Source: an uncultured Desulfobulbaceae bacterium
GTDB lineage: Bacteria > Desulfobacterota > Desulfobulbia > Desulfobulbales > BM004
Direction of reading: 5' to 3'
NCBI GenBank assembly: GCA_945787325.1
Contig: CALZHP010000005.1
Coordinates: 476-64,475 of the forward strand
DNA length: 64,000 nt
The notes below the pieces were generated by a model. It saw only the letters and a program-made list of their open reading frames with translations, searched no databases and was not told the DNA's origin. This document shows, piece after piece, positions 5,952-50,917 of this stretch. The first letter of the stretch is position 1, and each line of letters starts with the position of its first letter. Position numbers and translations under genes: made by a program.

Positions 5952-8900
5952 TTATACTTCTTCAACCTCTTCAACTTTGCCAAAGGCACTGATCTGAGAA
6001 GTAATCTGTTCATTGGTAAATCCACCCATCGATATAGCAAAGGTAGGACAATGTGATGCACATATCCCACAAGCTTTACATGATGCAGTAATGGTTTCGG
6101 CTTTACGCTTACCATCAACCTTTAACATCTGAATGGCCTGATATGGACACAGGTTGGCGCAAAGACTGCAACCGATACATTCTTCCTTGTTAATGTTTGA
6201 GACAATCGGATCGACCGAAACATATCCCTTAACTAATGGTATAGCTGCTTTTCCCGCCGCAGCCTGTGCCTGAACAATAACTTCATCAATAGGTTTAGGT
6301 GAGTGGGCCAGACCGCAAACAAATACACCATCAACTGGTAATTCGACGGGGCGAAGTTTCACGTGGGCTTCCAGGAAAAAATTGTCTGCAGTTACTGGAA
6401 TTTTAAGCAACTTGCTTAAGTGGTCTGTATCCTCAGGAACAACACCTACACTTAACGCTACGAGGTCTGGAGTAAGTGTCATTTCTTCCTGTAGAATAGG
6501 GTCAAAATAAGTTACTTCAGTTTTCTTACCCTTAGACTTGATCGCAGGTTTTTCATCCATTTTGTATGGTACAAAAATCACACCTTTTTCACGAGCTTCA
6601 CGGTAAGCATCTTCAGCAAAGCCGTAAGTGCGAATATCCCTGTACAAAACAACTACCTGAGATTTATTGTCTATACTCTTGATTTTAAGTGCATTTTTTA
6701 TGGCATGATTACAGCAATTCTTGCTGCAGTATTTTAAATCGTCACCACGTGATCCGGCACACTGAATCATAACCGTCGATTTTGGTGCGCGGCTTTTTCC
6801 TTTACCGGCTAGTTTTTCTTCAAGTTCAAGCTGTGTAACAATATTGTCTGAATATTTAATCTTGTTGCCAAGAACTTCTTCAGGTTTATGTTCTTTACCG
6901 CCGGTGGCAACAATCATAACGCCGTGATCAACAGTAAGTTCCTCAGACTTTTTGCCTTTTGTAGTTGTTACAATTGAAGAAAAGTTGCCTACAAAGCCGT
7001 TTGTCTGCGTAAGTTCAGCATTGGTGATAACCTCAATGTTTTTGTCCTTTTTAACCTTGGCGGTTATGTCCTTAAGAAATTTAGAGGTATCTTCCCCAAA
7101 TAAAGTTGTGTTTACTTTATTAAGATTACCGCCAAGCTGAGGTCCTTTCTCAATCAGGTAACAGCCAAATCCCTGGTCGGAAAGATTCAGTGCTGCGGTC
7201 ATACCGGCAACACCACCACCAATAACCATCGCTTTAGCAGTCACAGGCACGGTCTGCTCAGGCAGAGGCTGAATGAGCTTTGCCTTTGCAACTGCCATGC
7301 GTACCAAGTCCATGGACTTGTCAGTTGCCTGATCCGGTTCATTGGCATGCACCCAGGAACATTGATCCCTGATATTCACCATCTCAAAAAGTGATCGGTT
7401 GAGGCCTGCATCTTTCAGGGTTTCCTGAAAAAGAGGCTCATGAGTTCTTGGGGAGCACGCGGCAATAACAACCCTATTAAGATTATGTTCTTTTATTTTT
7501 TCTTTTAATACCTTCTGAGCATCCTGAGAACAGCTGTAGAGGCTTTCGGCATAGTAGGAAACTCCATCCATTGTACCGGAATATTCACTTACCTTGTTGA
7601 CATCAACTACGCTGCTTATGTTGATACCACAGTGGCAAACAAAAACTCCAATACGGATTTCATCTTCTGGAGAAACGACAATCTCCTTGGGGTATTTCTT
7701 TACAACGACACCCTTGCCGCGATCCTTTTTAAGCAGACCGGCAATTTCACCGGCAGCACCGCTTGATTGCGTTACGCTCTCAGGAATATCTTTCGGCCCT
7801 TGGAAAGCACCGGCAACAAAAACTCCTTTTCTTGATGTTGCCAGAGGCTTAAAAGAGCTTGTTTTACAAAAATCATAGGTATTGAGATCAATCTTGGAAA
7901 CTTCTGCCAGATCTTTGGCACTGGCAGGTGAATCAAGTCCGACAGAAAGGACAACCATATCATGCGGAACAAATTTGTGTTCCCCTTCCATGGTTGAATA
8001 CGTGAGACGCAATTGATTTTCCCAGGGCATTACATCAGCAACCCTGGATCGAACAAACTTAATACCCATGCCTTCAGCTCGGGTTTTTGCTGCATCGAAA
8101 TCTTTTCCCTGTGTGCGAATATCCATATAATAAACAGTGATATCGACTTCCGGGTCATGTTCTTTGGCCACCATTGCCTCTTTGATTGCATACATACAGC
8201 AAACGGAAGAGCAATAACCGTTATCACAATTTAGGTCTCTGGATCCAACACATTGGATAAATGCTATACTTTTGGGATGTCGCTGGTCAGAAAGACAGAG
8301 AACTTCACCCTTAAATGGTCCAGATGGATTCGAGAGACGTTCGAATTCGAAGCTGGTAACAACGTCTGGGTGAATACCATAGCTGTATTTAGCCATTGTC
8401 TCATCTTCAATACGACCAAAACCGGGTGAAAGGACAACTGCACCAACATTTAATTCCCGATCCTGAGGGGCCTGGCTGAAATCAATTGCTTTACTCTGAC
8501 ATACCGGCACACAGATCTGGCAGGTATCGTGTTGAAGATGCAGACACTCTTTCGGATCAATATAGTACGTTGCAGGAACAGCCTGAGCGTAATCTATATG
8601 TATAGGACGCGTAAGTGAAAGATTTTCATTATACTCATCAACTAAATGACGCGGACAATAGGTGGTACACAGCCCACATGCTGTACAGTCATCAGCATTG
8701 ATATAGCGTGGATTAATGTTAATTTTAGCTGAAAACTTACCAGGACTTCCTTTAAGGGATTTAAGTTCAGCGTTTGTGATTATTTCGATATTTGGAGACC
8801 GACCGGCCTCTACCAATTTTGGCGCCAGGATTCAGAGCGAGCAATCATTGGTAGGGAACGTTTTGTCCAGTTGGGCCATAACACCGCCAACGGCAGCGGA

Positions 8901-37967: not shown

Positions 37968-40148
37968 ATGCGATTTAAAATAATCGTTTCAACACTTCTT
38001 TTCTTAAACATTTTTATCATTTCAGGATGCACTCCACCTAAATATTCTGACCAGAGAATGGTTAGCAAGGTTGATATTTCTGAGATAAGCAAAAAAATAT
38101 CAAGAGAAGATGCAAAAAGTGCCCTGTTAGATGTATCTGAGACAGTTGAAAAAGAGCCTCCGGGTCCGAAAATTAAAGATTTATCTGTAGAAACCTTTGA
38201 TAGAAATCCTTACCTCGACAACGTTTCAGTCCCAAAAAAAAGAAAATTACCTAAAGCTGTTGAAGGTGAAGGAATACTTCTTAACTTTGACAATGCAGAT
38301 ATATACGAAGTAATTCAGGTCATTGCTGAAACATTAGGCCTGAATTATATAATCGATCCCCAGGTTAAAGGTATTGTTAATATACGTTCCGGACAAAAGA
38401 TTCCTATGAATCAGCTATCTGTACTTTTTCGGAAAATCCTTAATATAAATGGATTGGATATCAGGCAGGAGGGAGAATACGAGTATATATTTGTTTCGAA
38501 TAAGCTTGCTTCACAAAACTTTTTTGGGCCTGGCCAGATGGGCGATCTCAAAAAATCACCCAGAATGGTTATCCAGGTATTGCCGTTGATGTACATGTCA
38601 TCGACAGAAGCCATGCAGCTTATCGAACCTTATATATCCGAACAGGGATCTGTCCACAATCTAACCAGCTCAAACACGCTTATAATTACTGATTTCGAAT
38701 CAAAAGTTATAGATTCATTAATGCTCCTTAGTCGTATTGACATTTCCCCTCTTTCATCTCTTAAGGTTCGCCTGGTTAAAATTGAAAACGCACCACTCTT
38801 TGACTTGCGTGATGAGTTACTTGAAATCCTTTCAGCACTTCAAATAAACAAAAAAGACCGTGATGCCATATCAGTAATTCCTCTTGAAAGAGTAAATTCT
38901 ATTTTATTGGTCAGCAATAACAGAAAGCTCATTGAGAGTGCAGAAGAGTGGGTAAGTGAACTTGATGTTGTTCCAACTCAGGGTAGAGATAACATATATA
39001 TATATAATGTAAGAAACTCAGTTGCATCAGATCTTGCTGATCTGGTTAATACTTTAATTAGTGACCAGGGGGATGGCAAAACATCCCAAACAAGAAGACC
39101 GGCACCTATTAGACCGGCTTCAGCAACAGAAGATTCGACAACACGGGCTGCTGCTCCTTCAACAGCTTCCAGAGGTGTCAGTTCTGGAGAAACATCTTCT
39201 TCTTTGCATTTTGCTGGTGAACCAGTTCTTATAGCAGATGACAGCCGCAACATTATTCTCTTGAGGGCTCTACCTGTTGATTATTCAAGGCTGGCCAAAC
39301 TTCTTGAACGGCTTGACAACTTACCGCGTCAGGTACTTATTGAAGTTTTGGTAGCCGAAGTGACACTAAGTGACGGGTGGGAGTTTGGTATTGAGTGGGC
39401 GTTGAAAGACAATAATCTAAATATAAATCATCATGATTACACCCAGACTTACAGTACAGAATTCGACCAAGTGGCTGCAGGTGCACTTGGAGGTTTCAGC
39501 TACAGTGCTATAAGTAATAGCGGTAGACTGATTACAGTTCTAAATGCACTTGCTGATAAAGATGATGTTTCAATACTTTCTTCTCCACAGGTGCTGGTAT
39601 TAAACAATGAAACAGCAACAGTTAATGTAGGTCAAGAAGTTCCTATTGTTACCACAGAAACCATTAATGACGATGTTAACACCAACAATACCAGAACCGT
39701 TCAATATCGTGATACTGGTATTATTTTAAATGTTACGCCAAGAATTAACTATGACGGTATTATTATACTTGATATCGACCAGCAAGTAAGTGAAGCATTG
39801 ACAGAAAACGTGACATCGGGCATAGACTCACCCGTTATCACATCCCGAGAACTCAAAACAAAACTTGCCGTAAAAGATGGACAATCCATTTTGATGGGAG
39901 GATTAATTGAAAGAAAAACTGAAAGTGGTGAAGTTGGGGTTCCATTGTTGAAGGACATACCTGTTTTGGGATGGCTTTTTAAATATCAAACCGAGACAAA
40001 CGATAAAACTGAACTGGTAATAATGATTACTCCATATGTTATTGAATCTGAAGATGTACTAGATCAGTACATAAGCCAGTTTAAATTAAAGATGGATGAG
40101 CTGCGGGGAGAGTTAACTGGCGCTGAAAGTCAAATTATGACCCAATAA
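37968..40148 (+). CDS. gspD: Type II secretion outer-membrane secretin (lipoprotein-type signal)
   Basis: Lipobox IISGC. N0 domain LNFDNADIYEVIQVIAETLGLNYIIDPQVKG. Secretin domain SSPQVLVLNNETATVNVGQEVPIVT...GIPLLKDIPVLGWLFK. Confidence 0.9.
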   Translation: MRFKIIVSTLLFLNIFIISGCTPPKYSDQRMVSKVDISEISKKISREDAKSALLDVSETVEKEPPGPKIKDLSVETFDRNPYLDNVSVPKKRKLPKAVEGEGILLNFDNADIYEVIQVIAETLGLNYIIDPQVKGIVNIRSGQKIPMNQLSVLFRKILNINGLDIRQEGEYEYIFVSNKLASQNFFGPGQMGDLKKSPRMVIQVLPLMYMSSTEAMQLIEPYISEQGSVHNLTSSNTLIITDFESKVIDSLMLLSRIDISPLSSLKVRLVKIENAPLFDLRDELLEILSALQINKKDRDAISVIPLERVNSILLVSNNRKLIESAEEWVSELDVVPTQGRDNIYIYNVRNSVASDLADLVNTLISDQGDGKTSQTRRPAPIRPASATEDSTTRAAAPSTASRGVSSGETSSSLHFAGEPVLIADDSRNIILLRALPVDYSRLAKLLERLDNLPRQVLIEVLVAEVTLSDGWEFGIEWALKDNNLNINHHDYTQTYSTEFDQVAAGALGGFSYSAISNSGRLITVLNALADKDDVSILSSPQVLVLNNETATVNVGQEVPIVTTETINDDVNTNNTRTVQYRDTGIILNVTPRINYDGIIILDIDQQVSEALTENVTSGIDSPVITSRELKTKLAVKDGQSILMGGLIERKTESGEVGVPLLKDIPVLGWLFKYQTETNDKTELVIMITPYVIESEDVLDQYISQFKLKMDELRGELTGAESQIMTQ

Positions 40149-40174: not shown

Positions 40175-40210
40175 AGCCTTACGTTAAGCAACGTTAGGCT
40201 GTTTTTATTT
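40175..40210 (+). terminator. Rho-independent terminator after gspD
   Basis: Stem agccttacgt / acgttaggct (9 of 10 bp) with loop taagca, followed by gtttttattt. Confidence 0.65.
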
Positions 40211-40228
40211 CTAACTAATAAATCATTC

Positions 40229-40426
40229 AACGCCATCTGTTGAACCACTAGCCCACTTCCCTTTAATAACCCATTATTTTTTTATAACAGACTGCGGGCG
40301 CAGTCTGTTATAACGTCCTTGATAGGTGGAGTGCGAGCGAATCCACAAGGGTGTTCTTTCCGAAGTGTTCAACTGTAGGCGATAAGTGAAACCGGTGAGT
40401 GATATCGAGCGGTCTCACTTATCAGT
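40229..40426 (-). repeat. ~195-nt structured repeat, copy A (inverted relative to copy B at 46271-46465)
   Basis: The reverse complement aligns by eye along its whole length with 46271-46465. Both copies share the start tgataagtgagaccgc...cacttatcgcc and the end ...caacag..ggcgtt. Copy A contains a 13-bp perfect hairpin (40283-40312) and a 12-13 bp hairpin gataagtgaaacc/ggtctcacttatc. Confidence 0.7.
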
Positions 40427-40819
40427 ATATATATATTATTAAATTTGATTTGAATAACGATAAAATTTACAGGTGAATTTATTTACCTTAAATAACATTC
40501 TTAAGTTATTCATTAGTCACATAATTTCATATTATCTTTCAGTATCAGTAAATGACTTATTAACATCTAATTATTTCAGTAATATTAATTAAAAATTTGA
40601 AATACTTTGGGAGTTATAAGTCTTATTTTAAAATGTTTTAAGAAAACAATAATTCCTATGTAATGTATTTATATTCCTTGTATCCGGAATTCCTTGCCTT
40701 AATTTCTCTACTTAATTATCGGTTTAATATTTCTTATGTCATTGTTCTATTGTTATATTTGTCTTTATATTTTACACATGTGGCACAATGTGGCAGAAAT
40801 TATTTTTTTATATCGAAAA

Positions 40820-40897
40820 TTGACACATTTTGTCAATTTATAGCCATAATTGACAAAATGTGTCACACAGGGTATACATATTGACAAATATTGTCAA
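40820..40897. promoter_or_regulatory. Array of three 17-bp TTGACA-N5-TGTCAA palindromes (candidate enhancer-binding-protein sites)
   Basis: The three sites are 40820-40836 ttgacacattttgtcaa, 40850-40866 ttgacaaaatgtgtcac and 40881-40897 ttgacaaatattgtcaa. Centre-to-centre spacing is 30-31 bp. They lie 150-230 bp upstream of the sigma54-type promoter. Confidence 0.55.
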
Positions 40898-41046
40898 TTG
40901 TGTTATAGGAAATTTATTTGATAATATTAATATGTTACATGTCATTATTAATGAAAAATGGGAGTGTCATAGTATTATAAATTTTTAAATTAGGTAAATT
41001 AAAAATCAATTTTCTTTTAGCAGACTTTATTTATATCCCCCTACCC

Positions 41047-41062
41047 AGGCACAGTTCTTGCT
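41047..41062 (+). promoter_or_regulatory. Sigma54-type -24/-12 promoter of cytochrome cassette 1
   Basis: aGGCACagttcTTGCt matches TGGCAC-N5-TTGC in 9 of 10 core positions with correct spacing. It lies 87 nt upstream of the ATG at 41148. Confidence 0.6.
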
Positions 41063-41147
41063 ATAAATAACTTTGATTCAAAATATATGTTCTTAAATGA
41101 TAAACTGGAAAGTTAATTGTTAAGTAACTTTTACTAGAGGGAAGAAA

Positions 41148-41498
41148 ATGAGAATTGGAAAAAGTAAATTTTTATTTGGCGTTTTTACATTTTTAATAGC
41201 AGTGAGTTTCATCTGCATTTCTGTAGACAATGCAGATGCTCGTAGAAGACGGAGAAGAAGACCGCCACCACCAGTATCTGAAACTGTTGGTACAGTTGAA
41301 CAGGTAATTCAGAATGAAGAAATTACCATTGTTCAAATAAACAATGGTTCTACTTTATCCTGGGTGGCTACTCCTTCAATACAGGTTTCTGTAGGCGATA
41401 GTATTTCATTAAGACCCGGCAATAGAATTAACGGCCAACACATGAGGAGACTGAACAGAACATTTGATTCCATCATCTACTCTGATGGGCCAAATTGA
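41148..41498 (+). CDS. Small secreted protein, cytochrome-cassette partner (paralog of 46857-47201)
   Basis: RBS gaggga. Signal peptide, then RRRRRRPPPP, then an ~70-aa segment (WVATPSIQVSVGDSISLRPG...RRLNRTFDSIIYS). That segment aligns with WVAVPATDISVGDRVLFKPG...KSLNRTYSRIVLS in the paralog. Confidence 0.7.
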   Translation: MRIGKSKFLFGVFTFLIAVSFICISVDNADARRRRRRRPPPPVSETVGTVEQVIQNEEITIVQINNGSTLSWVATPSIQVSVGDSISLRPGNRINGQHMRRLNRTFDSIIYSDGPN

Positions 41499-41554
41499 TT
41501 TTAATATAAAATGTCTAAGTAACAACAAAATTACAGAAGCTTTGGGAGGTCACG

Positions 41555-44500
41555 ATGGGAAGAGAGGTATTTAAACATAGGCTGCTCTTCTTAACCCTTT
41601 TATGTTTTATAGGGTTATGGGGAGCTATTAACGCTGGCAACGCACAAGCTGTACTTACTGATGCGGATTGTGCCGTCTGCCATGCTGTTGTGGCAGCAGA
41701 TCCAATAACTCCACACCATAACCTTGCTTTTCAGCAAGGTAAATCATGTTCAGAGTGCCATAGGCAGGCTAACCCTGGTTGTACAGACTGCCATGGAGAC
41801 CCAATTGTAGACCCGGCATTTCATGAAAACGCTCACAATAAAATTAGCATAGCAACAGATTGTGCCGCCTGTCATGGAAGCCCGGACATTATTGAAGTTA
41901 CACACATGGAAAACTGCTTTGGTTGTCACGAGAGCACTGATCCAAATATCATCTCTATCATTGACAACGCCATTGCAGATCCCAATGCTTCGGTAAATTG
42001 TGAAACATGTCATGGCATGCTTGGCAACCCTCAACACGCCGACCCGGACCATAGCAGGATTAACATTTTTTCTGAATGTGCAACCTGCCATGGCGATCCT
42101 GAAATTGTTGGTATAACACATCTTGACAACTGTGCTACCTGTCATAGCAGCCCTCGACCAGAAGTACAAACAATTATCGATAATGCGGTTGCTGATCCCA
42201 CCCTGCAAGTTAACTGTGCTGATTGTCACGGTGTACTCGCGGAAGCTCATGCCGCTCCAGATCATACGGAAATTCAAATTTCCGCTGATTGTCAGGAGTG
42301 TCACGGCAGCCCGGATATTGTACCGGTAACCCACTTGAACAACTGTGCTACATGTCATGCCGCACCACAGGCAATTCAGGATATTATAGATGCTGCCCTG
42401 AATAATACTGCGGTTGCTACCTGTAATGCTTGTCATGGTATATTTAATGTACAACATCCTGAGCCTATACATGACAGCCTTTCCATCTTCCCGGAATGTG
42501 CTACATGTCATGGAGACAGTGATATAATTGGCGTAACTCATATGGTGCCTTCTACATATCCATGCGGGTACTGTCATGTCAGCACAGACCAGAATGTTAT
42601 TGATACGATCAGCGCTGGCGCTGCAGGTACACCTGTTAACTGTTCAGGTTGTCATGGTACGCTCGTAGTTGTTCATGCCGCACCGAATCATACTGAAATA
42701 CAGATTTCCGCCGACTGTCAGGCATGTCACGGCAGTGTTGATATCGTGCCGGTAACCCATAATAACAACTGTGCTACCTGCCATGCCGCACCACAGGCAA
42801 TCCAGGATATTATAGATGCTGCCCTGAATAATACTGCAGTAGCTACTTGTAACGCTTGTCATGGTACCTTCCAGGAACAGCACAATAATCCGCAGCACAA
42901 CCAGATTTCAGTATTTTCTGAGTGTGCCACCTGTCATGGGGATGCTGATATTGTCGGTGTAACCCATAGAGGCTTATGTGAATCATGCCATACAAGCACA
43001 AGTCAGAATGTTATTGATACAATCGCTGCTGGTGTAGCTGGTACTCCTGTAGATTGTTCTAACTGCCATGGAGTACTAGCAGAAGCACATGCAGCTCCTG
43101 ATCATACGGAAATTCAGATTTCCGCTGATTGTCAGGATTGCCACGGCAGTACTGACATTGTGCCGGTAACCCATAATAACAACTGTGCTACCTGCCATGC
43201 TGCACCGCAGGCAATACAAGCCATTATAGATGCCGCTCTTAACAACACGGCTACTGCAACTTGTAATGCCTGTCACGGAGTGTTCCAGGAAGTACATGCT
43301 AATGTAACTCACAGCAATGTTGAAATTTCACAGCCATGTACTACATGCCATGGTGTGAACCAGACTCCGATCGGTGTTCATAATGATGATTGTCTGCTGT
43401 GCCACACCAGCACAAGGCCAGATGTCATCCAGACCATTGAGGACGGTAAAGCCGGTCTACTGGTTGGTTGTGTAGACTGTCATGGTAACGTAGACACAAC
43501 TGGCCTGAACCATCTGCCGCAGCATGATACGGAAACGCCAGAGCCATTATGTCTCGATTGCCATGATCCGAACGTTGCTCGTGAGCATTTGAATATATAC
43601 CCCGACATTGTCGAAAACTGTTTCATTTGTCATGGTGATCCAATACTTCAATCTGTAATTGAAGCCGGCAGAAGCTCGAATCCGAATGCAGTAATCATTA
43701 CATGTGCAGACTGCCATATGTTCACAACATTTGAAACCCACAATGTTGCTCATACACAAGTTGTACTTCCGTCCGACGGCTGTATTGACTGCCACGATGC
43801 TAACACTGCTACTGAACATGTTGACGTGAGAGGATGGGGTTGTACAACCTGTCACAGCAGTACACGCCAGGATGTGCAGGATGCAATTGCCAGCGGTAAA
43901 GCTGGAAATCTTGTCAACTGTACAGATTGTCACCAAGGGCCACTTGATCATGCTGCACAGCATGACCACACATTCCTGAACGCACCGGAATGTGCAGACT
44001 GTCATAGTGCTAACGTCGTCACTGAACATGTTGACAACCAGGGCTTTGGCTGCGGTATCTGTCATGACGATCCGCTCCTGGTTGAATTCATTATTAACCC
44101 GGGTATGGCCGGTACCGACATATTCTGTCAGGATTGTCATATACCGCCAACCGATCACACCAATGCTCATAATATGACGGATGTAACTGATCCTGCCTGT
44201 CTTGAGTGTCATGATTCGGATGTATCTGTAGAGCATGTGACAAACAATGGACTCAGCTGTACTGTCTGTCATGGTAACCCTGCATACGATCCTATCATTG
44301 ATAGCGGCAAGGGAGACACAGGTACACTTGTAACCTGTGATGCCTGTCATGGTGCAAACGCAGGAGATCATGTGGCGGCTCATGATATGACCCGTCTCAA
44401 CACAGGCAACTGTGCGGACTGTCACAACGCAAATGTTGTTACTGAACATGTAACTGATCACCTGTTAAGCTGTTCAACATGCCATTCAAGCACAGATCCT

Positions 44501-45952
44501 GCAGTTCAGGCCGCAATTTCTGCTGGTCAGGCCGGCCAGGAAGTATTCTGTTCAGATTGTCATGTCGGAGCCGGTATGCATACCGAACAGCACGATATGG
44601 TCATTCTGCCTGAAGCATACTGCGCAGACTGCCATGCTGGCAATGTGGTTATAGAACATGTTGACAACCGTGGTCTCAGCTGTGATACATGTCATGGCGA
44701 TCCTGTCCTACAGGATATAATTCAGGCAGGAATGAATGGCACTGCGCTTGATTGTTTGGATTGTCATATGACTACAGATCATATTACAGCCCATGACAAT
44801 ACAGATGTACCATCTCCTGAATGTGCCGACTGTCATAACGGCAATGTTGCCACCGAGCACTTCACCGATGGCGGCCTGAGTTGTCTGGTATGTCATGGTA
44901 ACACAGCTTACGATGCAATCATTGCTGCCGGCCAGGCTGGGACACTTGTAACGTGTACTGATTGTCATGGAGTATCTGATCATAGGGATGCGCACGACAT
45001 GACGGTTGTACCGCAGCCTGTTTGCGCTGACTGCCATGATCCGAACGTAGTCGTTGAGCATGTTGATAACCGTGGTTTGGATTGCGGTGTATGCCATAAC
45101 GCAACCTATCAGAGTATCATTGATTCCGGTATAGCCGGCAACCAGGTTAGCTGCCTGGCCTGTCATGGTGATCCGGACCATCATACCAACTCTAATGAAG
45201 CTTTAACCGGTAATTGTACCCATTGTCATGCTCCACCAAACAGCGCAATGGACGCACCTGTTCAGGGAGCTTGTCGTCAATGTCACATAAACAGCAACGG
45301 CTATGTACAGACATTTAATGGTACTACTGTACATGCATTTAATACCAACGGTGCTATTCAGGACTTTGGTGCCTGTTTTGCCTGCCACTCACCGCAGCCT
45401 TACCATGGTAAGCCCAACACTTGGCCTGGCTTTTTCAATGAAAATGCCGTTGCCCCGGGTAGAGGATCTTTTAATATCTTCTTCAGTCAGTTTAATCCGA
45501 GTTGTGCACCTGATTGTGAAGGTACATTCTATGAAGATCTAAACGGATACGGAGAGGACGGTCAACCCCAACGAGATGGTGGCGATACTTGGCGCAATCC
45601 AGCTATTAACTTTGACTGGGTAACAATTGAGCACATGGGTAATATGTATGATGTACCTGCATTCTCAAGCAGCCCAATGAATGGCGGAGGAGGTGATCCT
45701 CCTACCATGAATGACTCCGTGGTTATCACCTATGCTGATTACTCTTCTTGGAGTGATAGACTGACAGTTTACGCTGAGAACGCACTCGATGACGGAGCTA
45801 ATCTGAGCTTAACCTGGTGTGGTGACTCTTATTCAATGAGTTACAGTTCGAATAATGACCGCTGGGAGAAGCAAGTTGATAATGTAAACGACTGTGGTGA
45901 TGTCACTGTAACATCTGACATGGGTGGTAGTGACACTGCAACACCCAATTAA
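41555..45952 (+). CDS. Giant multihaem c-type cytochrome (about 54 CxxCH motifs, 1465 aa), secreted
   Basis: RBS gggagg. Signal peptide ending AQA. My hand count finds 54 CxxCH motifs between residues ~38 and ~1240. A haem-free ~225-aa C-terminal region follows. Confidence 0.9.
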   Translation: MGREVFKHRLLFLTLLCFIGLWGAINAGNAQAVLTDADCAVCHAVVAADPITPHHNLAFQQGKSCSECHRQANPGCTDCHGDPIVDPAFHENAHNKISIATDCAACHGSPDIIEVTHMENCFGCHESTDPNIISIIDNAIADPNASVNCETCHGMLGNPQHADPDHSRINIFSECATCHGDPEIVGITHLDNCATCHSSPRPEVQTIIDNAVADPTLQVNCADCHGVLAEAHAAPDHTEIQISADCQECHGSPDIVPVTHLNNCATCHAAPQAIQDIIDAALNNTAVATCNACHGIFNVQHPEPIHDSLSIFPECATCHGDSDIIGVTHMVPSTYPCGYCHVSTDQNVIDTISAGAAGTPVNCSGCHGTLVVVHAAPNHTEIQISADCQACHGSVDIVPVTHNNNCATCHAAPQAIQDIIDAALNNTAVATCNACHGTFQEQHNNPQHNQISVFSECATCHGDADIVGVTHRGLCESCHTSTSQNVIDTIAAGVAGTPVDCSNCHGVLAEAHAAPDHTEIQISADCQDCHGSTDIVPVTHNNNCATCHAAPQAIQAIIDAALNNTATATCNACHGVFQEVHANVTHSNVEISQPCTTCHGVNQTPIGVHNDDCLLCHTSTRPDVIQTIEDGKAGLLVGCVDCHGNVDTTGLNHLPQHDTETPEPLCLDCHDPNVAREHLNIYPDIVENCFICHGDPILQSVIEAGRSSNPNAVIITCADCHMFTTFETHNVAHTQVVLPSDGCIDCHDANTATEHVDVRGWGCTTCHSSTRQDVQDAIASGKAGNLVNCTDCHQGPLDHAAQHDHTFLNAPECADCHSANVVTEHVDNQGFGCGICHDDPLLVEFIINPGMAGTDIFCQDCHIPPTDHTNAHNMTDVTDPACLECHDSDVSVEHVTNNGLSCTVCHGNPAYDPIIDSGKGDTGTLVTCDACHGANAGDHVAAHDMTRLNTGNCADCHNANVVTEHVTDHLLSCSTCHSSTDPAVQAAISAGQAGQEVFCSDCHVGAGMHTEQHDMVILPEAYCADCHAGNVVIEHVDNRGLSCDTCHGDPVLQDIIQAGMNGTALDCLDCHMTTDHITAHDNTDVPSPECADCHNGNVATEHFTDGGLSCLVCHGNTAYDAIIAAGQAGTLVTCTDCHGVSDHRDAHDMTVVPQPVCADCHDPNVVVEHVDNRGLDCGVCHNATYQSIIDSGIAGNQVSCLACHGDPDHHTNSNEALTGNCTHCHAPPNSAMDAPVQGACRQCHINSNGYVQTFNGTTVHAFNTNGAIQDFGACFACHSPQPYHGKPNTWPGFFNENAVAPGRGSFNIFFSQFNPSCAPDCEGTFYEDLNGYGEDGQPQRDGGDTWRNPAINFDWVTIEHMGNMYDVPAFSSSPMNGGGGDPPTMNDSVVITYADYSSWSDRLTVYAENALDDGANLSLTWCGDSYSMSYSSNNDRWEKQVDNVNDCGDVTVTSDMGGSDTATPN
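42230..43290 (+). repeat. Three tandem near-identical ~414-426-nt coding repeats inside cytochrome 1 (six CxxCH per unit)
   Basis: Units start at about 42230, 42656 and 43070. Long stretches are nearly identical at DNA level. One example is ccggtaacccataataacaactgtgctacctgccatgc.gcacc.caggcaat.ca.g..attatagatgc, which encodes HAAPDHTEIQISADCQxCHGSxDIVPVTHxNNCATCHAAPQAIQxIIDAALNNTAxATCNACHG. Confidence 0.8.
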
Positions 45953-45991
45953 TATAAACCAACTGCTTTATTATAAGCAGTACAAACCAAA

Positions 45992-46030
45992 AGGGGCGGC
46001 TTCGTGAATCGAGGCCGCCTCTTTTTTTTA
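45992..46030 (+). terminator. Rho-independent terminator of cassette 1
   Basis: Stem aggggcggcttcg / cgaggccgcctct (with G-U pairs) and loop tgaat, followed by ttttttt. Confidence 0.8.
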
Positions 46031-46270
46031 TCTATTGTATGCATGGATTAAAAGAACCTTCTTCCTGTTTACAGAATTAGATATCTTTGAAGTACTTATT
46101 CAGTTTCCTAAAAATGAAGCATATACAACCTTGATCATTTAGTAAGATTACCGCTTCCTCCTAAATAAATTTCCAGTAAATTTGCAGGATATTCTCAAAG
46201 TGAAAATACATTCTTATTCACTGTACAAACTTAACCAAATTGTAATTTATGTAATTTCTGTTTATTATCA

Positions 46271-46465
46271 ATGATAAGTGAGACCGCCCGCTATCGCTCA
46301 CCTGTCTCACTTATCGCCGGCTGTTGAGCCCTTCGGCACGAACACCCTCGAGCGTTGCTCACGCTCCACCCTTTAAATGCGTTCTAACAAACTGCGTCTG
46401 CGGTCATTTATAAACATGAATGATTATAAAAGGTACGCGGGCTCGCGGCTCAACAGCCGGCGTTA
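46271..46465 (+). repeat. ~195-nt structured repeat, copy B
   Basis: See copy A. Copy B has the 12-bp hairpin gataagtgagac/gtctcacttatc (46274-46314). It also has a perfect 15-bp long-range stem, gccggctgttgagcc (46316-46330) with ggctcaacagccggc (46447-46461). Confidence 0.7.
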
Positions 46466-46607
46466 TGTTTTATAATAAGTGTAGACATTTTAATTCCTTA
46501 GCTATTACAACTATCTCAATCCTCATATTTTTGATGATACTACGTCAATCTTAACTTGATTCTTCAAATAATTAAATCGCAATATAAATTGATAAAAACA
46601 AACCAAC

Positions 46608-46655
46608 TTGACACAAAATGTCAGCTCAATATCGAATATTGACATTAATTGTCAC
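46608..46655. promoter_or_regulatory. Two 17-bp TTGACA-N5-TGTCA palindromes upstream of cassette 2
   Basis: Sites are 46608-46624 ttgacacaaaatgtcag and 46639-46655 ttgacattaattgtcac, spaced 31 bp apart. They lie 100-150 bp upstream of the sigma54-type promoter. The half-site is the same as in cassette 1. Confidence 0.55.
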
Positions 46656-46753
46656 TTCCCCGTGTTTTTCTTTTTTACAACAACAACTCATAAATATAGC
46701 CTTTTCTTTGATGTCAAAGGGATAATGATATATATCTTGTTTAATAATCTTAT

Positions 46754-46769: not shown

Positions 46770-46856
46770 TGTTTATGTTTTAATTGCTGTTATACGGACT
46801 TTATAGTTCGTAATTGCGAACAAAAAGGTAAAATTAAAGATTAGGTGGAGCTGAGT

Positions 46857-47201
46857 ATGACCAAATTGAATTATAAACAAAAACTCTTTATTGCTATCCT
46901 GTCTGTTTTCATCTTTACACTCTTTGGATTTTTAAATTTCAAAACTTCTCCATCAATCGCAGCCGAAATACAAATGGATACAGTTTCTGGGTCCGTTGTT
47001 GAAGCACACAATGTTGGAGACCGACTACTTGTATTAATTAAAAACAGAAAGGACATGTCCAAGAAGTGGGTTGCCGTTCCAGCAACTGATATTTCTGTTG
47101 GTGACAGGGTCTTATTTAAGCCCGGTATAGTTATGAATAATTTCAATATAAAAAGTTTAAACAGAACTTATTCAAGAATTGTATTATCACCCGGATCTTG
47201 A
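46857..47201 (+). CDS. Small secreted protein, cytochrome-cassette partner (paralog of 41148-41498)
   Basis: I chose the ATG at 46857 because aggtggag lies 8 nt upstream; the track starts at the GTG at 46845. Signal/TM segment LFIAILSVFIFTLFGFL. The C-terminal segment is homologous to the cassette 1 partner. Confidence 0.7.
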   Translation: MTKLNYKQKLFIAILSVFIFTLFGFLNFKTSPSIAAEIQMDTVSGSVVEAHNVGDRLLVLIKNRKDMSKKWVAVPATDISVGDRVLFKPGIVMNNFNIKSLNRTYSRIVLSPGS

Positions 47202-47269
47202 TCCGAGTCACTAATATAGGTTGAAGCATGAACGCAACTATTAAGGAAGGGAAAATCGGGAGGTATCAA

Positions 47270-50200
47270 ATGGGGATTATTACATTAAATACACGGTTAT
47301 TTCTGATAACCATGTTTGCCGCTGCCGCGCTTTGTTTTATCTATACAGGTAACGCCATGGCATTGACATCGGCAGATTGTGCAGAATGCCATGCACCAAT
47401 TGTCGCTGACCCAATAAGTCCACATCATAATCTTGCAACTCAACAGGCCCTTTCGTGTTCAGCATGTCACCGTATGGCAAGTCCAACCTGTACTGACTGC
47501 CATGGAGACCCAATAATTGACCCGGCATTTCATGAAAATATTCATTCGAACATCAGCATCGCTCCTGACTGTTCCTCATGCCATAGCAACCCTGATATTA
47601 TCCCCGTCACTCACTCTAATAACTGTACAGTTTGCCATGACAGTACTAACCAGGTTGTTATTGATACCATAGCAGCCGGTTCGCAAGGTACTGCCGTCAA
47701 CTGTGAAAACTGTCACGGTGCCCTTTCTGAAGTACATACCCCAACACACGCTCAAATCAGTATCGCAACCGATTGTGCCGGCTGTCACGGTGACCCCGCC
47801 ATAGTACCTGTTACTCATAGCGATAACTGTGCAACATGTCATAACAGTACTGACCAGGCAGTAATTGATACCATTACTGCAGGTTTCAATGGCACACAGG
47901 TCGACTGTAACAATTGTCATATAAGCATTAACCATACAGCGCAACACGATCAAACCTTTGTACCTGAAGCGATTTGCGCCGATTGTCATGACGGTAATGT
48001 TGCGGTAGAACATACAGTTAATCACTCTTCAACTTGTACTGCTTGTCATAATGACCCATTGCTTGCTTCAATAATTGATAGTGGTAAAGCGGGCAATGCT
48101 GTAGTTTGCACGGACTGTCATACAGCTACAACACTTGCTTCTCATAATTCTCTTCATGACAAAACAGTACTTCCATCAGATGGATGTATTGAATGTCATG
48201 ATGCCAATGTAGCAGTTGAACATGTTGATAACAGGTCAATAGGCTGTACAGACTGCCATAACAGTACTCGACAAGAAGTACTGGATGCAATCGCCAACGG
48301 TATCTCTGGAATGACAGTTAACTGTTCAGATTGTCACCTTGGACCTCTTGATCATCAGGCAGCTCATGATATGACAAGGACAGACGATGTTTCCTGTCAG
48401 GACTGTCATAACCAGAATGTTGTAACAGAGCATGTCGACAACCAGGGCATTAGTTGCAGCAGCTGTCATGATGACCCAATGATACAAACTATCATTGCTT
48501 CAGGTGTGGCTGGCAACATTGTAGTGTGTGCTGACTGCCACATTATGTCCGACCACACAAACGCCCATAATAATACAGATGTAACGGATTCTGCCTGTCT
48601 CGAATGTCACGATCCGGATGTATCTGTTGAACACGTTGCCAACGGCGGCCTCAGCTGCCTTGTTTGCCATGGCAACACGACTTACGATGCGATCATTGAC
48701 AGCGGTAAAGGTATAGCAGGTACACTCGTAACCTGTGATGCATGTCACACAAATGCCGGTGATCATACAGCGGCACATGATATGACAAGTCTTAACTCAG
48801 GCGACTGTGCCGAGTGTCATAATGCCAATGTAGTTACAGAGCATGTTGATGTACGACTGTTAAGCTGTTCAACATGCCACTCTAGCACAGATGCTACGGT
48901 TCGGGCTGTAATAGAATCCGGCCAGAACGGTCAGGAAGTATTTTGTTCAGATTGTCATGTGGGTGCCGGAATGCACTCAGATGAGCATGATATGGTAGAC
49001 GTACCAGATTCTTTATGTGCAGACTGCCATAATGGAAATGTTGTAATTGAGCACGTTGATAATCGAGCTCTTACCTGTAATACATGTCACGGTGATCCTG
49101 AACTTCAGAGAATCATTCAGTCCGGCATGAATGGAACTGCTCTTGATTGTTACGATTGTCATATGACAACTGATCATGCAGCTGAACACGACAATACAGA
49201 CGTTCCATCAGCGGAATGTGCAGAATGTCATGACGGCAATGTTACAGTAGAGCATATTGACAACCGCGGCTTAAGTTGTCTTGTCTGTCACGGCAGTGCT
49301 ACGTACGACTCAATCATTGCAGCGGGACAGACTGGTACACAAGTAACATGTACAGACTGTCACGGTGCAGCAGATCATAGTGCGGCCCATGACATGACTG
49401 TTGTACCGCAAGCGGTATGTGCTGATTGTCATGATCCGAATGTAGTAGTAGAACACGTTGATAACCGAGGTTTCGATTGCGGAATCTGTCATAACAGCTC
49501 ATATCAAGGCATAATTGATTCAGGTATTGCCGGCAATCAGGTTAGTTGTTTAAACTGCCATAATACTCCGGATCATCATGCAAACTCGAATGACGCAAAA
49601 TCAGGGAACTGTACACTGTGTCATCAAGTAACGAGTAGTGCAATGGATGCTCCTGTTATTGGCGCCTGTCGCGAATGTCATATAAATAATCAGGGATATG
49701 TCCTTCAGAAGAACCTGTCGAGTGTGTTAACTAGCCATAGAATTAACACCCAGGGCGATATCCAGGATTTTGGTGCCTGTATTACCTGCCACAACTACAG
49801 CAGCAATTCTGCTCCTTATGTCCAACCTTATCACGCTAAGCCGAGCAGCAAGCCGCGATACTATATCAACAACATTACCGAGGCTCCGGGCCGTGGTTCC
49901 TTCAACCTCTTCTACGACCAATGGCATAGAAATAGTGGCGAAGACAACGAAGGCAAGGAACCAGGATGTGGTGAAGATAGCAGCTGTAACGGTAGCAGCT
50001 GGCGCAATCCAGAAATCAGTTTCCAGTGGTTAACTATAGATTACAATGGAAATCTGTATGATGTACCGGCTTTCTCTGATAGTGGTAATAGACCGGACGG
50101 AGGAGGTCCTCCTGTTGATCCGCCTACCGGTGGTGGCTGTGAAATTGATGCGAATGGGACCTATGTTGAATCCGAAAATTATAATGCCCTTGGCAACAAC

Positions 50201-50917
50201 TGGTCCGTACAAAGTGGCGACGGAAACGGCAATGGTTATCTGTATGCTACAGCAAACAGCACTAGCTCTGTTTCCGGTAGCCCGGCTGAATACGACCTTA
50301 CCTTTACCGAGTCCGGCACCTACTACATCTGGTTCCGTGGTAAAGATAATGGAAGTTCAGATGACAACTCACTCTGGTATGGAGTTGATGGTTCCATGAA
50401 AGGCAACGCTACAACTCCTGCAACAAACAATAACTGGAGTTGGACAAGGACCCCTCATAATACTGGTCCAAATCCAACCCGCATAACCATAAACAGCGCC
50501 GGCACATATACCGTTACTATATGGGCCAGGGAGAATGGCTTCCGATTCGACGGCTTCTATGTAACCAAGAGCAGCAGCTCAATATCCGGTTCCATTCCCA
50601 GCGGTGCTGACATTGTTGATCCCACCAACTGCGGTGGCGGAGGTGAACCACCTGTAGATCCACCTCCTGCTAACGATGACTCCGTAAACATCACCTATGC
50701 AGATTATTCATCATGGAGAGATAGGTTAAGGGTCTATGCTGAGAATGACCTCGATGATGAAGCGAATCTGAGCTTGACCTGGTGTGGAGAATCCTATTCG
50801 ATGAGTTATATTTCGAGTAATGACCGCTGGGAGAAGGAAGTCAACAACGTCAACGACTGTGGTGATGTTACGGTAACTTCAGATAGGGGCGGCAGTGATA
50901 CTGCAACGGCCAACTAA
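47270..50917 (+). CDS. Giant multihaem c-type cytochrome (about 36 CxxCH motifs) with lectin/CBM-like beta-sandwich insertion, secreted
   Basis: I preferred the ATG at 47270 (gggagg RBS; MGIITLNTRLFLITMF... parallels the cytochrome 1 N-terminus). The track start is 47228. My hand count gives 36 CxxCH motifs. Long stretches are collinear with the C-terminal two thirds of cytochrome 1. Confidence 0.9.
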   Translation: MGIITLNTRLFLITMFAAAALCFIYTGNAMALTSADCAECHAPIVADPISPHHNLATQQALSCSACHRMASPTCTDCHGDPIIDPAFHENIHSNISIAPDCSSCHSNPDIIPVTHSNNCTVCHDSTNQVVIDTIAAGSQGTAVNCENCHGALSEVHTPTHAQISIATDCAGCHGDPAIVPVTHSDNCATCHNSTDQAVIDTITAGFNGTQVDCNNCHISINHTAQHDQTFVPEAICADCHDGNVAVEHTVNHSSTCTACHNDPLLASIIDSGKAGNAVVCTDCHTATTLASHNSLHDKTVLPSDGCIECHDANVAVEHVDNRSIGCTDCHNSTRQEVLDAIANGISGMTVNCSDCHLGPLDHQAAHDMTRTDDVSCQDCHNQNVVTEHVDNQGISCSSCHDDPMIQTIIASGVAGNIVVCADCHIMSDHTNAHNNTDVTDSACLECHDPDVSVEHVANGGLSCLVCHGNTTYDAIIDSGKGIAGTLVTCDACHTNAGDHTAAHDMTSLNSGDCAECHNANVVTEHVDVRLLSCSTCHSSTDATVRAVIESGQNGQEVFCSDCHVGAGMHSDEHDMVDVPDSLCADCHNGNVVIEHVDNRALTCNTCHGDPELQRIIQSGMNGTALDCYDCHMTTDHAAEHDNTDVPSAECAECHDGNVTVEHIDNRGLSCLVCHGSATYDSIIAAGQTGTQVTCTDCHGAADHSAAHDMTVVPQAVCADCHDPNVVVEHVDNRGFDCGICHNSSYQGIIDSGIAGNQVSCLNCHNTPDHHANSNDAKSGNCTLCHQVTSSAMDAPVIGACRECHINNQGYVLQKNLSSVLTSHRINTQGDIQDFGACITCHNYSSNSAPYVQPYHAKPSSKPRYYINNITEAPGRGSFNLFYDQWHRNSGEDNEGKEPGCGEDSSCNGSSWRNPEISFQWLTIDYNGNLYDVPAFSDSGNRPDGGGPPVDPPTGGGCEIDANGTYVESENYNALGNNWSVQSGDGNGNGYLYATANSTSSVSGSPAEYDLTFTESGTYYIWFRGKDNGSSDDNSLWYGVDGSMKGNATTPATNNNWSWTRTPHNTGPNPTRITINSAGTYTVTIWARENGFRFDGFYVTKSSSSISGSIPSGADIVDPTNCGGGGEPPVDPPPANDDSVNITYADYSSWRDRLRVYAENDLDDEANLSLTWCGESYSMSYISSNDRWEKEVNNVNDCGDVTVTSDRGGSDTATAN

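Follow-up and report, generated by a model that had tools for sequence, protein, structure and literature searches.

A structured inverted repeat around a multihaem cytochrome operon as a putative pair of stray, gene-less integron cassettes

Why should a multihaem cytochrome operon of an uncultured Desulfobulbaceae bacterium be bracketed by two inverted copies of a strongly folded, non-coding sequence of about 195 nt? The question arises from a stretch of 64,000 nt (contig CALZHP010000005.1 of assembly GCA_945787325.1, positions 476 to 64,475 of the forward strand), hereafter called the window, in which a first-pass annotation had pointed out the repeat and proposed three origins for it: a mobile repeat resembling a miniature inverted-repeat transposable element (MITE) or a repetitive extragenic palindrome (REP), a small structured RNA family, or a recombination substrate linked to the fate of the cytochrome segment. 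The element family is named E here, its two window copies A and B, the genome that holds the window G000, and its stems P1 to P5. The comparisons described below indicate that E is very probably an integron cassette-type recombination module, and that A and B are probably solitary copies of it put by an integrase at secondary sites.

When aligned end to end with MAFFT, the reverse complement of A and B are identical at 148 of 196 element columns (75.5%), and at 77% over the 5' 120 nt, which confirms the full-length inverted repeat noticed at 40229-40426 and 46271-46465; its location stands and its exact ends have been drawn inwards to those of Table 1. A repeat search of the window gives inverted arms of 77 nt with 84% identity (40348-40424 and 46272-46348), and the longest exact run common to A and B, read from the MAFFT alignment, measures 17 nt. 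As had been described, both copies fold in the same way: a 5' hairpin of 12-14 bp, P1 (GATAAGTGAGAC…GTCTCACTTATC), is followed by a long-range stem, P2, around ~115 nt, which pairs at 15/16 positions in B and at 11/16 in A, and the inner hairpin P3 is perfect in A and degraded in B. The minimum free energy z-scores of these folds range from -4.3 to -6.4, with 0/200 shuffles folding as well, and the G+C content of the two copies is 46-53%, versus 28-34% in the surrounding intergenic DNA.

Outside the window, BLASTN of E against 60 relatives returned nothing real, and a covariance model was therefore needed. This model, R1, covers the 5' 120 nt and was built from four sequences, namely A, B and two copies from one Desulfobacteraceae metagenome-assembled genome (MAG). 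A pattern scan of species-representative genomes gave 9 matches, one of them a true homologue (L018, in this uncultured Desulfobacteraceae MAG) whose genome holds the second copy on another contig. Of 151 same-order genomes searched with R1, 19 contain E, at 1-7 copies each and several times at contig ends, and E also occurs in 3 of ~146 sampled genomes from other orders of the phylum, so that the first-pass idea of a scar known from these two copies alone does not apply. G000 itself, a 2.78-Mb MAG of 144 contigs that is 90% complete, carries two copies, those in the window, according to BLASTN and nhmmer searches of the genome with the element. Beyond these genomes, a metagenome pattern scan for E gave chance matches only, a viral-contig scan with the internal box gave 6 chance matches of which 0 were confirmed by R1, and a distant blastn of a plasmid collection with B and a G091 copy gave no match. 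No description of E was found in open full-text literature.

Covariation supports the fold. In a model-fitted alignment of 27 sequences, a fitting that leans the counts towards structure, 91.9% of the cells pair, versus 73.5% after shuffling and 27-40% when the partner is slid, and compensatory double changes affect 23 of the 29 modelled pairs, including 10/12 in P1 and 11/11 in the inner stem P3. P2, which lies outside R1, covaries by inspection in at least eight distinct sequences, examples of its arm pairs being GCCGGCTGTTGAG/CTCAACAGCCGGC, GTCCGCCGGATGAGC/GCTCATCCGGCGGAC, GGTCGCTGTTGAG/CTCAACAGCGACC and GGGCCGGGCTGTT/AACAGCCCGGCCC. The earlier hint that G-U wobbles mark the plus strand of copy B had to be abandoned: the opposite, bottom strand folds better in 16 of 17 distinct copies (by a mean of 13.7 kcal/mol, with 84 versus 32 G-U pairs), and base composition explains most of this difference, shuffled copies showing nearly the same bias (142 versus 76). 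The mean z-scores of the two strands are -12.3 versus -10.3.

The neighbourhood of E in the other genomes links it to integrons. In G091, the divergent open reading frame (ORF) adjoining E matches TIGR02249, the integron integrase, with 437 bits for a cut-off of 265. A divergent intI lies 156-166 nt from the start of E in G091, G149, G140, G227 and G194, and 269 nt from it in G005, and the genomes with intI beside E represent several families from at least three orders. The attI region is a conserved spacer of ~170 nt with three direct ATAAGTGGAAA-type boxes and ends in …GGAAAGTTTCCACTTATTAAC-ACT-G. Upstream of other E copies stand attC hairpins of canonical appearance, in which some bases are bulged; a model built from such canonical attC sites just upstream of E copies, R2, also matches attCs behind ORFs led by E, on the same strand, which makes these loci true cassette arrays. 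Of the 24 intact non-window copies, 19 are followed on the same strand, at a distance of 14-41 nt, by the start of an ORF of at least 80 aa. The E-led ORFs that were scanned encode an OLD-family ATPase/TOPRIM protein, a STAND NTPase, a DUF4365 protein, a nucleoside deoxyribosyltransferase-like protein and a HEPN AbiU2 protein, and one more appears AbrB/MazE antitoxin-like, as judged from its sequence; such defence-like content is typical of chromosomal integrons. The gene intI was detected in 92 of the 151 same-order genomes, that is, in 16/19 of those with E and in 76/132 of the others (Fisher p = 0.04, kin genomes not being independent).

The distribution of E within genomes further indicates that it moves or is copied. 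In the nearly closed G091, which has a single intI, R1 gives seven matches, and the copies compared differ at ~2/196 positions, while the attI-type heads in front of four of them share only ~70-90% identity; G137 holds five near-identical copies. The same junction joins E to two types of attI, …CACTTATYAAC-ACTG| and …CTGCCTAAYAC-ACTG| (the vertical bar marks the crossover point), and E is placed after attI, after attCs and also at sites with neither type of flank. E is thus more than an inherited part of one integron platform.

Two side observations concern these integrons. Integrase-less integron heads are dispersed in the order (L104-L111 and L114, in G410, G369, G402, G396, G388, G345, G404, G329 and G349; L060, L062 and L063 in G091, which has 4 heads in total and 1 intI): the ~170-nt attI persists as far as the start codon of intI (…GGGTTCCAT), no more than a few codons of this gene are left, and ACTG|TTRRRY and ORFs then follow. 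Up to 6 such heads are found per genome, scattered along closed chromosomes. Besides, two truncated E copies (G061:C51:29641-29673, L027, and G061:C84:6170-6191, L029) comprise the first 22-32 nt only, namely the loop of P1 and its 5' arm, with 100% identity to the full copy 2 kb away; one of them stands directly after a canonical attC and is followed by unrelated sequence. Such remnants suggest imprecise excision or deletion within E.

The boundaries of E coincide with integron crossover points. An order-wide search found attI sites without E that read …TTATTAAC-ACT-G|TTAGAG, …G|TTGTAT, …G|TTAAAT and the like, followed by a ribosome-binding site and an ORF, with intI adjacent in G147, G306, G082 and G037, all showing the canonical G|TTRRRY crossover; the same attI with E reads …TTATTAAC-ACT-G|ATAGG… (G005, G337, G140). 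Where E follows an attC, the left junction consists of the L' box, a 5-6-nt spacer and then G|ATARG; at the other end, 13 of 17 distinct copies have a G|TTRRRY-like junction. As E begins after the upstream crossover G and ends before the next TTRRRY, it is a cassette by definition. In any cassette, the right half of R' is made of the cassette's own first bases; accordingly placed, the start of E, GATARGN, is the exact complement of R'' (NCYTATC) in 17/17 distinct copies, with covariation at two positions. The order of the boxes is R'' (NCYTATC), a 6-10-nt spacer, L'' (GTTGAGY or GATGMNY), the core, L' (GCTCAAC or GCTCATC), a spacer and R'. Read in this way, P1 is the R'/R'' pairing extended by 5-7 bp and closed over a cargo of ~10-25 nt, P2 is formed by the two complementary spacers and the L boxes, and E as a whole is very probably a minimal, gene-less, attC-only cassette, nearly one large attC-type recombination site. 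Two other placements were considered and rejected. Setting the attC-E junction at G|TCGATAAG and the attI-E junction at C|TGATAAG is mutually inconsistent, and the E-less attI sites put the crossover G just before ATAAG; the idea that E is attI itself, with its 3' end as the crossover, fails because this type of attI also works where E is absent and because E is found behind attCs as well.

The interior of E is a three-way junction comprising P3, a small hairpin P4, a box GCTCCACCTATCA, which closely resembles the attI L box TTTCCACTTATTAA, and CTGCGATTCTC, which occurs twice, once on each side of a variable hairpin. This hairpin is flanked by the direct repeat CTGCGAKTCTC (in L031, L036, L038, L044 and others), a motif present once in the hairpin-less L034, and it has the look of either an inserted sequence that duplicated 11 nt or a repeat that arose by slippage.

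Several features weigh against E being an attC-type cassette. The attC sites usually measure 57-141 nt and fold into a hairpin that is imperfect, its central spacer being unpaired and some of its bases extrahelical. In E, the core triplet is GAT/ATC and not GTT/AAC, which still falls within the GWT that integrases cut at secondary sites; the spacers pair fully in most copies (GCCGGCT/AGCCGGC in B), leaving no unpaired central spacer; no extrahelical bases were seen in P2, unlike in the canonical attCs just upstream of E, which do have bulged bases; and the R''-R' span is ~155-165 nt, with short natural variants of 85-110 nt that have no variable hairpin or P5. Moreover, 3 of the 19 E-bearing genomes have no detected intI. 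Finally, the interior (P3-P5, GCTCCACCTATCA, CTGCGATTCTC) is conserved in sequence across orders, far beyond what the variable region of an attC needs, which hints at a second function besides recombination; this unexplained conservation is the main reason for keeping an RNA, promoter or protein-binding function in view. E would consequently be described as a variant attC/cassette, having the placement, the boundaries and the boxes of such sites and differing from them in its hairpin, which is not bulged.

How did two copies come to lie in the window, outside any detected array? Their junctions read TATACTG|ATAAG…GATGGCG|TTGAAT for A and TATCAATG|ATAAG…GCCGGCG|TTATGT for B, and joining the flanks rebuilds two empty sites that are both G|TT, ACTG|TTGAAT and AATG|TTATGT (ATATACTG|TTGAATGA and TATCAATG|TTATGTTT). 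Integron integrases are known to insert cassettes at genomic attG sites with the consensus 5'-GWT-3' (doi 10.1101/2022.09.11.507474), and the rebuilt sites fit this consensus. In the scenario that we favour, and consider probable, an integron integrase would move E by the usual single-strand exchange at G|WT, and two already diverged copies would have been inserted independently, in opposite orientations, at G|TT secondary sites, attG-like and partly attI-like, in the AT-rich intergenic DNA on either side of the cytochrome operon, A and B later decaying in different stems. Independent arrival, rather than local duplication, is suggested by the distances: B is 79% identical to a copy in G061, a Desulfobacteraceae MAG, about the same as A to B (77%). 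The recombination substrate proposed at first is thereby retained in the form of a putative site-specific integrase substrate, and not as a scar or driver of cytochrome duplication. With exact shared runs of at most 17 nt, homologous inversion is unlikely as well, and the bracketing of this first cytochrome cassette is probably incidental. As to decay, A is affected in P2 and in the 3' motif CTCGCGGCTCA (which reads CTAGTGGTTCA in A) and keeps P3 and the CCACCTATCA box intact, whereas B keeps P1 and P2 and is affected in P3 and in the internal box (CCACCCTTTAA). That each copy decayed in a different part suggests relaxed constraint, and both are probably inactive now.

G000 itself has two intI genes, on the other contigs C88 and C21, and the attI of C21 reads TCCACTTATAAC|GTTACCG and has the same CACTTAT box as the arms of E. 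On C88, intI lies at 7305-8255 and the contig ends at 8456, which cuts off the attI after ~190 nt; the cassette array that belongs to it, along with further copies of E if there are any, may thus be missing from the assembly. Two points speak against insertion at secondary sites: only two copies of E and no attC array were found in a MAG that is 90% complete, and the ACT/AAT before the crossover G, together with the attI-like left flank of B, would also fit decayed integron heads. With a position weight matrix of attI ends, this flank scores p = 0.0014 (better than 99.86% of the 25-mers of the genome ending in TG) and that of A p = 0.044; the site of B is therefore either an attI look-alike or a decayed attI. 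A search of the family for an empty site, made with the 116-aa protein of the bracketed operon, gave only homologues of 28-41% identity, G000 being the sole genome of its genus.

The first alternative follows directly from this flank: A and B would be relics of integron heads (attI and E) whose integrase genes and attI have been deleted or have drifted, and not insertions at secondary sites. We regard it as unlikely. At their left junctions, ACTG| and AATG|, the two copies do not differ from real attI-E junctions, and the flank of B is attI-like, but a hidden Markov model of the whole 175-nt attI region has no match near either copy or anywhere in G000. Integrase-less heads are common in the order, as described above; here, however, the space expected for intI is taken by the end of the cytochrome gene and a terminator in the case of B, and by the promoter region of cytochrome cassette 1 in the case of A. 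A motif of ~25 nt, TAAATAAATTYMCCWGTAAATTT, is also common to the upstream regions of both copies (TAAATAAATTCACCTGTAAATTT and TAAATAAATTTCCAGTAAATTT, listed at 40365-40390, on the A minus-strand side, and at 46160-46185), ~40 nt and ~90 nt from P1, respectively, with an alignment score of 31 versus 18.8 ± 3.1 that is reached by 1/500 shuffles; this motif may be what is left of a flank once common to both, or else a binding site. Against heads of this kind, neither copy has a cassette ORF or an attC behind it, R2 giving no attC beside A or B and no attC array being found in G000.

A second alternative, which appears even more doubtful, is that E is primarily a structured RNA, be it a 5' leader, a promoter/stabiliser module or an antisense intI leader, and that the window copies act on the cytochrome operons. 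Covariation is strong, and the nucleotides of the loops and junctions are highly conserved, in the manner of riboswitch-like RNAs, but Rfam 15 gives no match in the window at gathering score and, with DUF1874, group II intron domains and riboswitches included, nothing over E in six E-bearing loci even at E-values ≤ 1-5. E stands directly upstream of ORFs in the 19/24 copies mentioned above, yet the ribosome-binding sites lie outside E and vary, which leaves no expression platform. Gene-less cassettes do work as promoters in Vibrio (PMC11014356), and a sigma-70-like TTGTAA-17-TATTAT ends 4 nt before copy B; nevertheless, promoter matches are within chance (3 found, 4.3 expected), and the core TTGACA…TATCAA is spaced by 20-22 nt and missing from the G091 subfamily. 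Besides, A faces a convergent terminator, B is 380 nt away from its gene, and the folding difference between strands is largely compositional. Of the structured family suggested by the first-pass annotation, the covarying structure is thus borne out; its anatomy and placement, however, are those of a folded DNA recombination site of the attC type, beside which an RNA function may exist.

Finally, it is very improbable that E is a MITE- or REP-like repeat moved by a transposase in trans, or that the pair is a duplication scar or a homologous inversion substrate of the 5.8-kb segment: E is indeed a small non-coding element with a structured fold, genomes can hold several copies of it that are nearly identical and lie in part at contig ends, and A and B are inverted around one operon, but of the mobile repeat first envisaged it is the mobility that survives, since E is bounded by the crossover points G|AT and G|TT and has no terminal inverted repeats (GATAAG… and …GGCG are not inverted copies), the flanks of ~40 E copies contain no target duplication, no transposase is consistently found beside E, A and B are 76% identical with exact runs ≤ 17 nt and resemble copies from another genome just as closely as they resemble each other, and the paralogous cytochrome cassette 2 lies outside the pair.

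As regards the genes around the two copies (Table 1), the neighbours are a GspD secretin (37968-40148), two small ORFs, a ThiS/ThiF-like gene and two giant multihaem cytochromes and, as already stated in the first reading of the locus, include no transposase, reverse transcriptase or TnpB gene adjoining either copy. Copy A has no ORF behind it and runs into the secretin terminator at 40177-40212. The bracketed operon is closed by an intrinsic terminator (45989-46025) with no attC there, and neither cytochrome operon was found to be followed by an attC, ordinary terminators only being present. The next real ORF after copy B begins 380 nt on, at 46845, with cassette 2 (46845-50917), which encodes a 118-aa ORF and a 1229-aa cytochrome. 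Both cytochrome cassettes have, in their upstream regions (40817-40899 and 46636-46657), repeats of a palindromic motif, ATATTGACAnnTnTTGTCAATT, that is unrelated to E.

Table 1. Coordinates of the two window copies of E, their putative recombination boxes and junctions, and the bracketed operon
Feature	Position	Strand	Remarks
Copy A of E, putative gene-less attC-only cassette, 192 nt	40231..40422	-	Reads ATAAGTGAGAC…GATGGCG; R1 129 bits (A is an R1 training sequence)
A: crossover G (40423) and cassette start	40412..40423	-	GATAAGT as R' half; P1 5' arm GATAAGTGAGAC
A: P1 3' arm	40381..40393	-	GGTTTCACTTATC; includes R'' = ACTTATC (40381-40387)
A: right junction	40225..40230	-	TTGAAT; with the last G of E, G|TTGAAT (= GTTRRRY), presumed target half-site
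Copy B of E, putative gene-less attC-only cassette, 189 nt	46274..46462	+	Reads ATAAGTGAGAC…AGCCGGCG; R1 123 bits (B is an R1 training sequence)
B: crossover G (46273) and cassette start	46273..46284	+	P1 5' arm GATAAGTGAGAC
B: P1 3' arm	46304..46315	+	GTCTCACTTATC; R'' = ACTTATC at 46309-46315
B: closing stem P2, 5' arm	46316..46330	+	GCCGGCTGTTGAGCC; includes L'' = GTTGAGC (46323-46329)
B: closing stem P2, 3' arm	46447..46461	+	GGCTCAACAGCCGGC; includes L' = GCTCAAC (46448-46454)
B: right junction	46463..46468	+	TTATGT; with the last G of E, G|TTATGT
B: left flank	46249..46273	+	ATGTAATTTCTGTTTATTATCAATG; like attI ends carrying E elsewhere (…TTTCCACTTATTAAC-AATG|)
Bracketed operon: 116-aa ORF and 1465-aa multihaem cytochrome	41148..45952	+	Pfam Cytochrome_C7 9.9e-70; context, not part of E

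The position of copy B, 320 nt after the stop of the operon encoding the 116-aa and 1465-aa proteins and in the same orientation as regards the ORFs and the R''…R' G|TT order, brings up a further idea, which at present is a long shot: E could serve as an independent donor of attC sites, through which ordinary genes of the chromosome become cassettes. It would land at a G|WT downstream of a gene, and a later exchange with an upstream G|WT may excise this gene together with its new attC, in which case the operon and copy B would constitute a proto-cassette of 5 kb. If true, this would bear on the long-open question of where cassettes obtain their attC sites, and would explain the conservation of E, its abundance at attI and its internal attI-like box TCCACCTATCAA.

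Compared with known systems, E most resembles integron cassettes. Like them, it is found in co-oriented arrays beside bona fide intI and at attI/attC crossover points, it has the box order R''-L''…L'-R', the G|TTRRRY right junction and a cassette start that is the right half of R', and its copies are near-identical within a genome and differ between genomes while keeping the fold. It departs from them by its GAT core, paired spacers, ~155-165-nt span and lack of a gene, and by a "variable" part that is a sequence-conserved three-way junction; besides, the combination of intI, attI and attC neighbours holds for the family and not for the solitary window copies. Gene-less cassettes that carry promoters have been described in Vibrio superintegrons (PMC11014356) and in oral Treponema integrons (PMC6557892). 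E shares with these the absence of an ORF, the position between coding cassettes and the sense relative to the array, but they are heterogeneous, consist of a few hundred nt plus an ordinary attC and are specific to each array, whereas E is almost purely attC, forms one conserved family in at least three orders and very often comes first after attI. The work that defined insertion at attG used resistance cassettes and IntI1-3 in E. coli (doi 10.1101/2022.09.11.507474); the window copies likewise lie outside integrons, with rebuilt G|TT targets, in either orientation and in a genome with intI, the differences being that here insertion is deduced from MAG junctions and that the target of B is also attI-like. 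The DUF1874 RNA motif, a multistem structure of consecutive intergenic regions, was proposed by Weinberg et al. (2017, PMC5737381) as a possible attC of unusual type. It resembles E in its several stems, in the conserved nucleotides of its internal loops, in its position before ORFs and in being readable as a complex single-stranded DNA recombination site, but no Rfam family, DUF1874 included, matches E at E-values ≤ 1-5, and no integrase has been seen beside DUF1874 runs, whereas E adjoins intI. With MITEs and with REP sequences and bacterial interspersed mosaic elements (BIMEs), E has in common that it is short, structured, non-coding and multi-copy; it differs in having no terminal inverted repeats, no target duplication and no link to a transposase or to a REP-associated tyrosine transposase (RAYT), and in being inserted at integron crossovers.

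An integron cassette normally consists of a gene and a poorly conserved hairpin. E would instead be nearly a pure recombination site that is itself a cassette, and it very often comes directly behind attI, in front of cassettes with defence genes. As such, it suggests that attC-type sites can exceed a bulged hairpin in complexity, as was only suspected for the DUF1874 motif, and it is a concrete candidate for a promoter, insulator or attC-donor role inside chromosomal integrons. Its two window copies offer a natural, non-clinical case consistent with cassette insertion at attG-like genomic sites, and their effect on the cytochrome locus itself is probably neutral. For those who annotate genomes, they are a reminder that a structured, "RNA-like" repeat beside an unrelated operon may be a piece of an integron gone astray.

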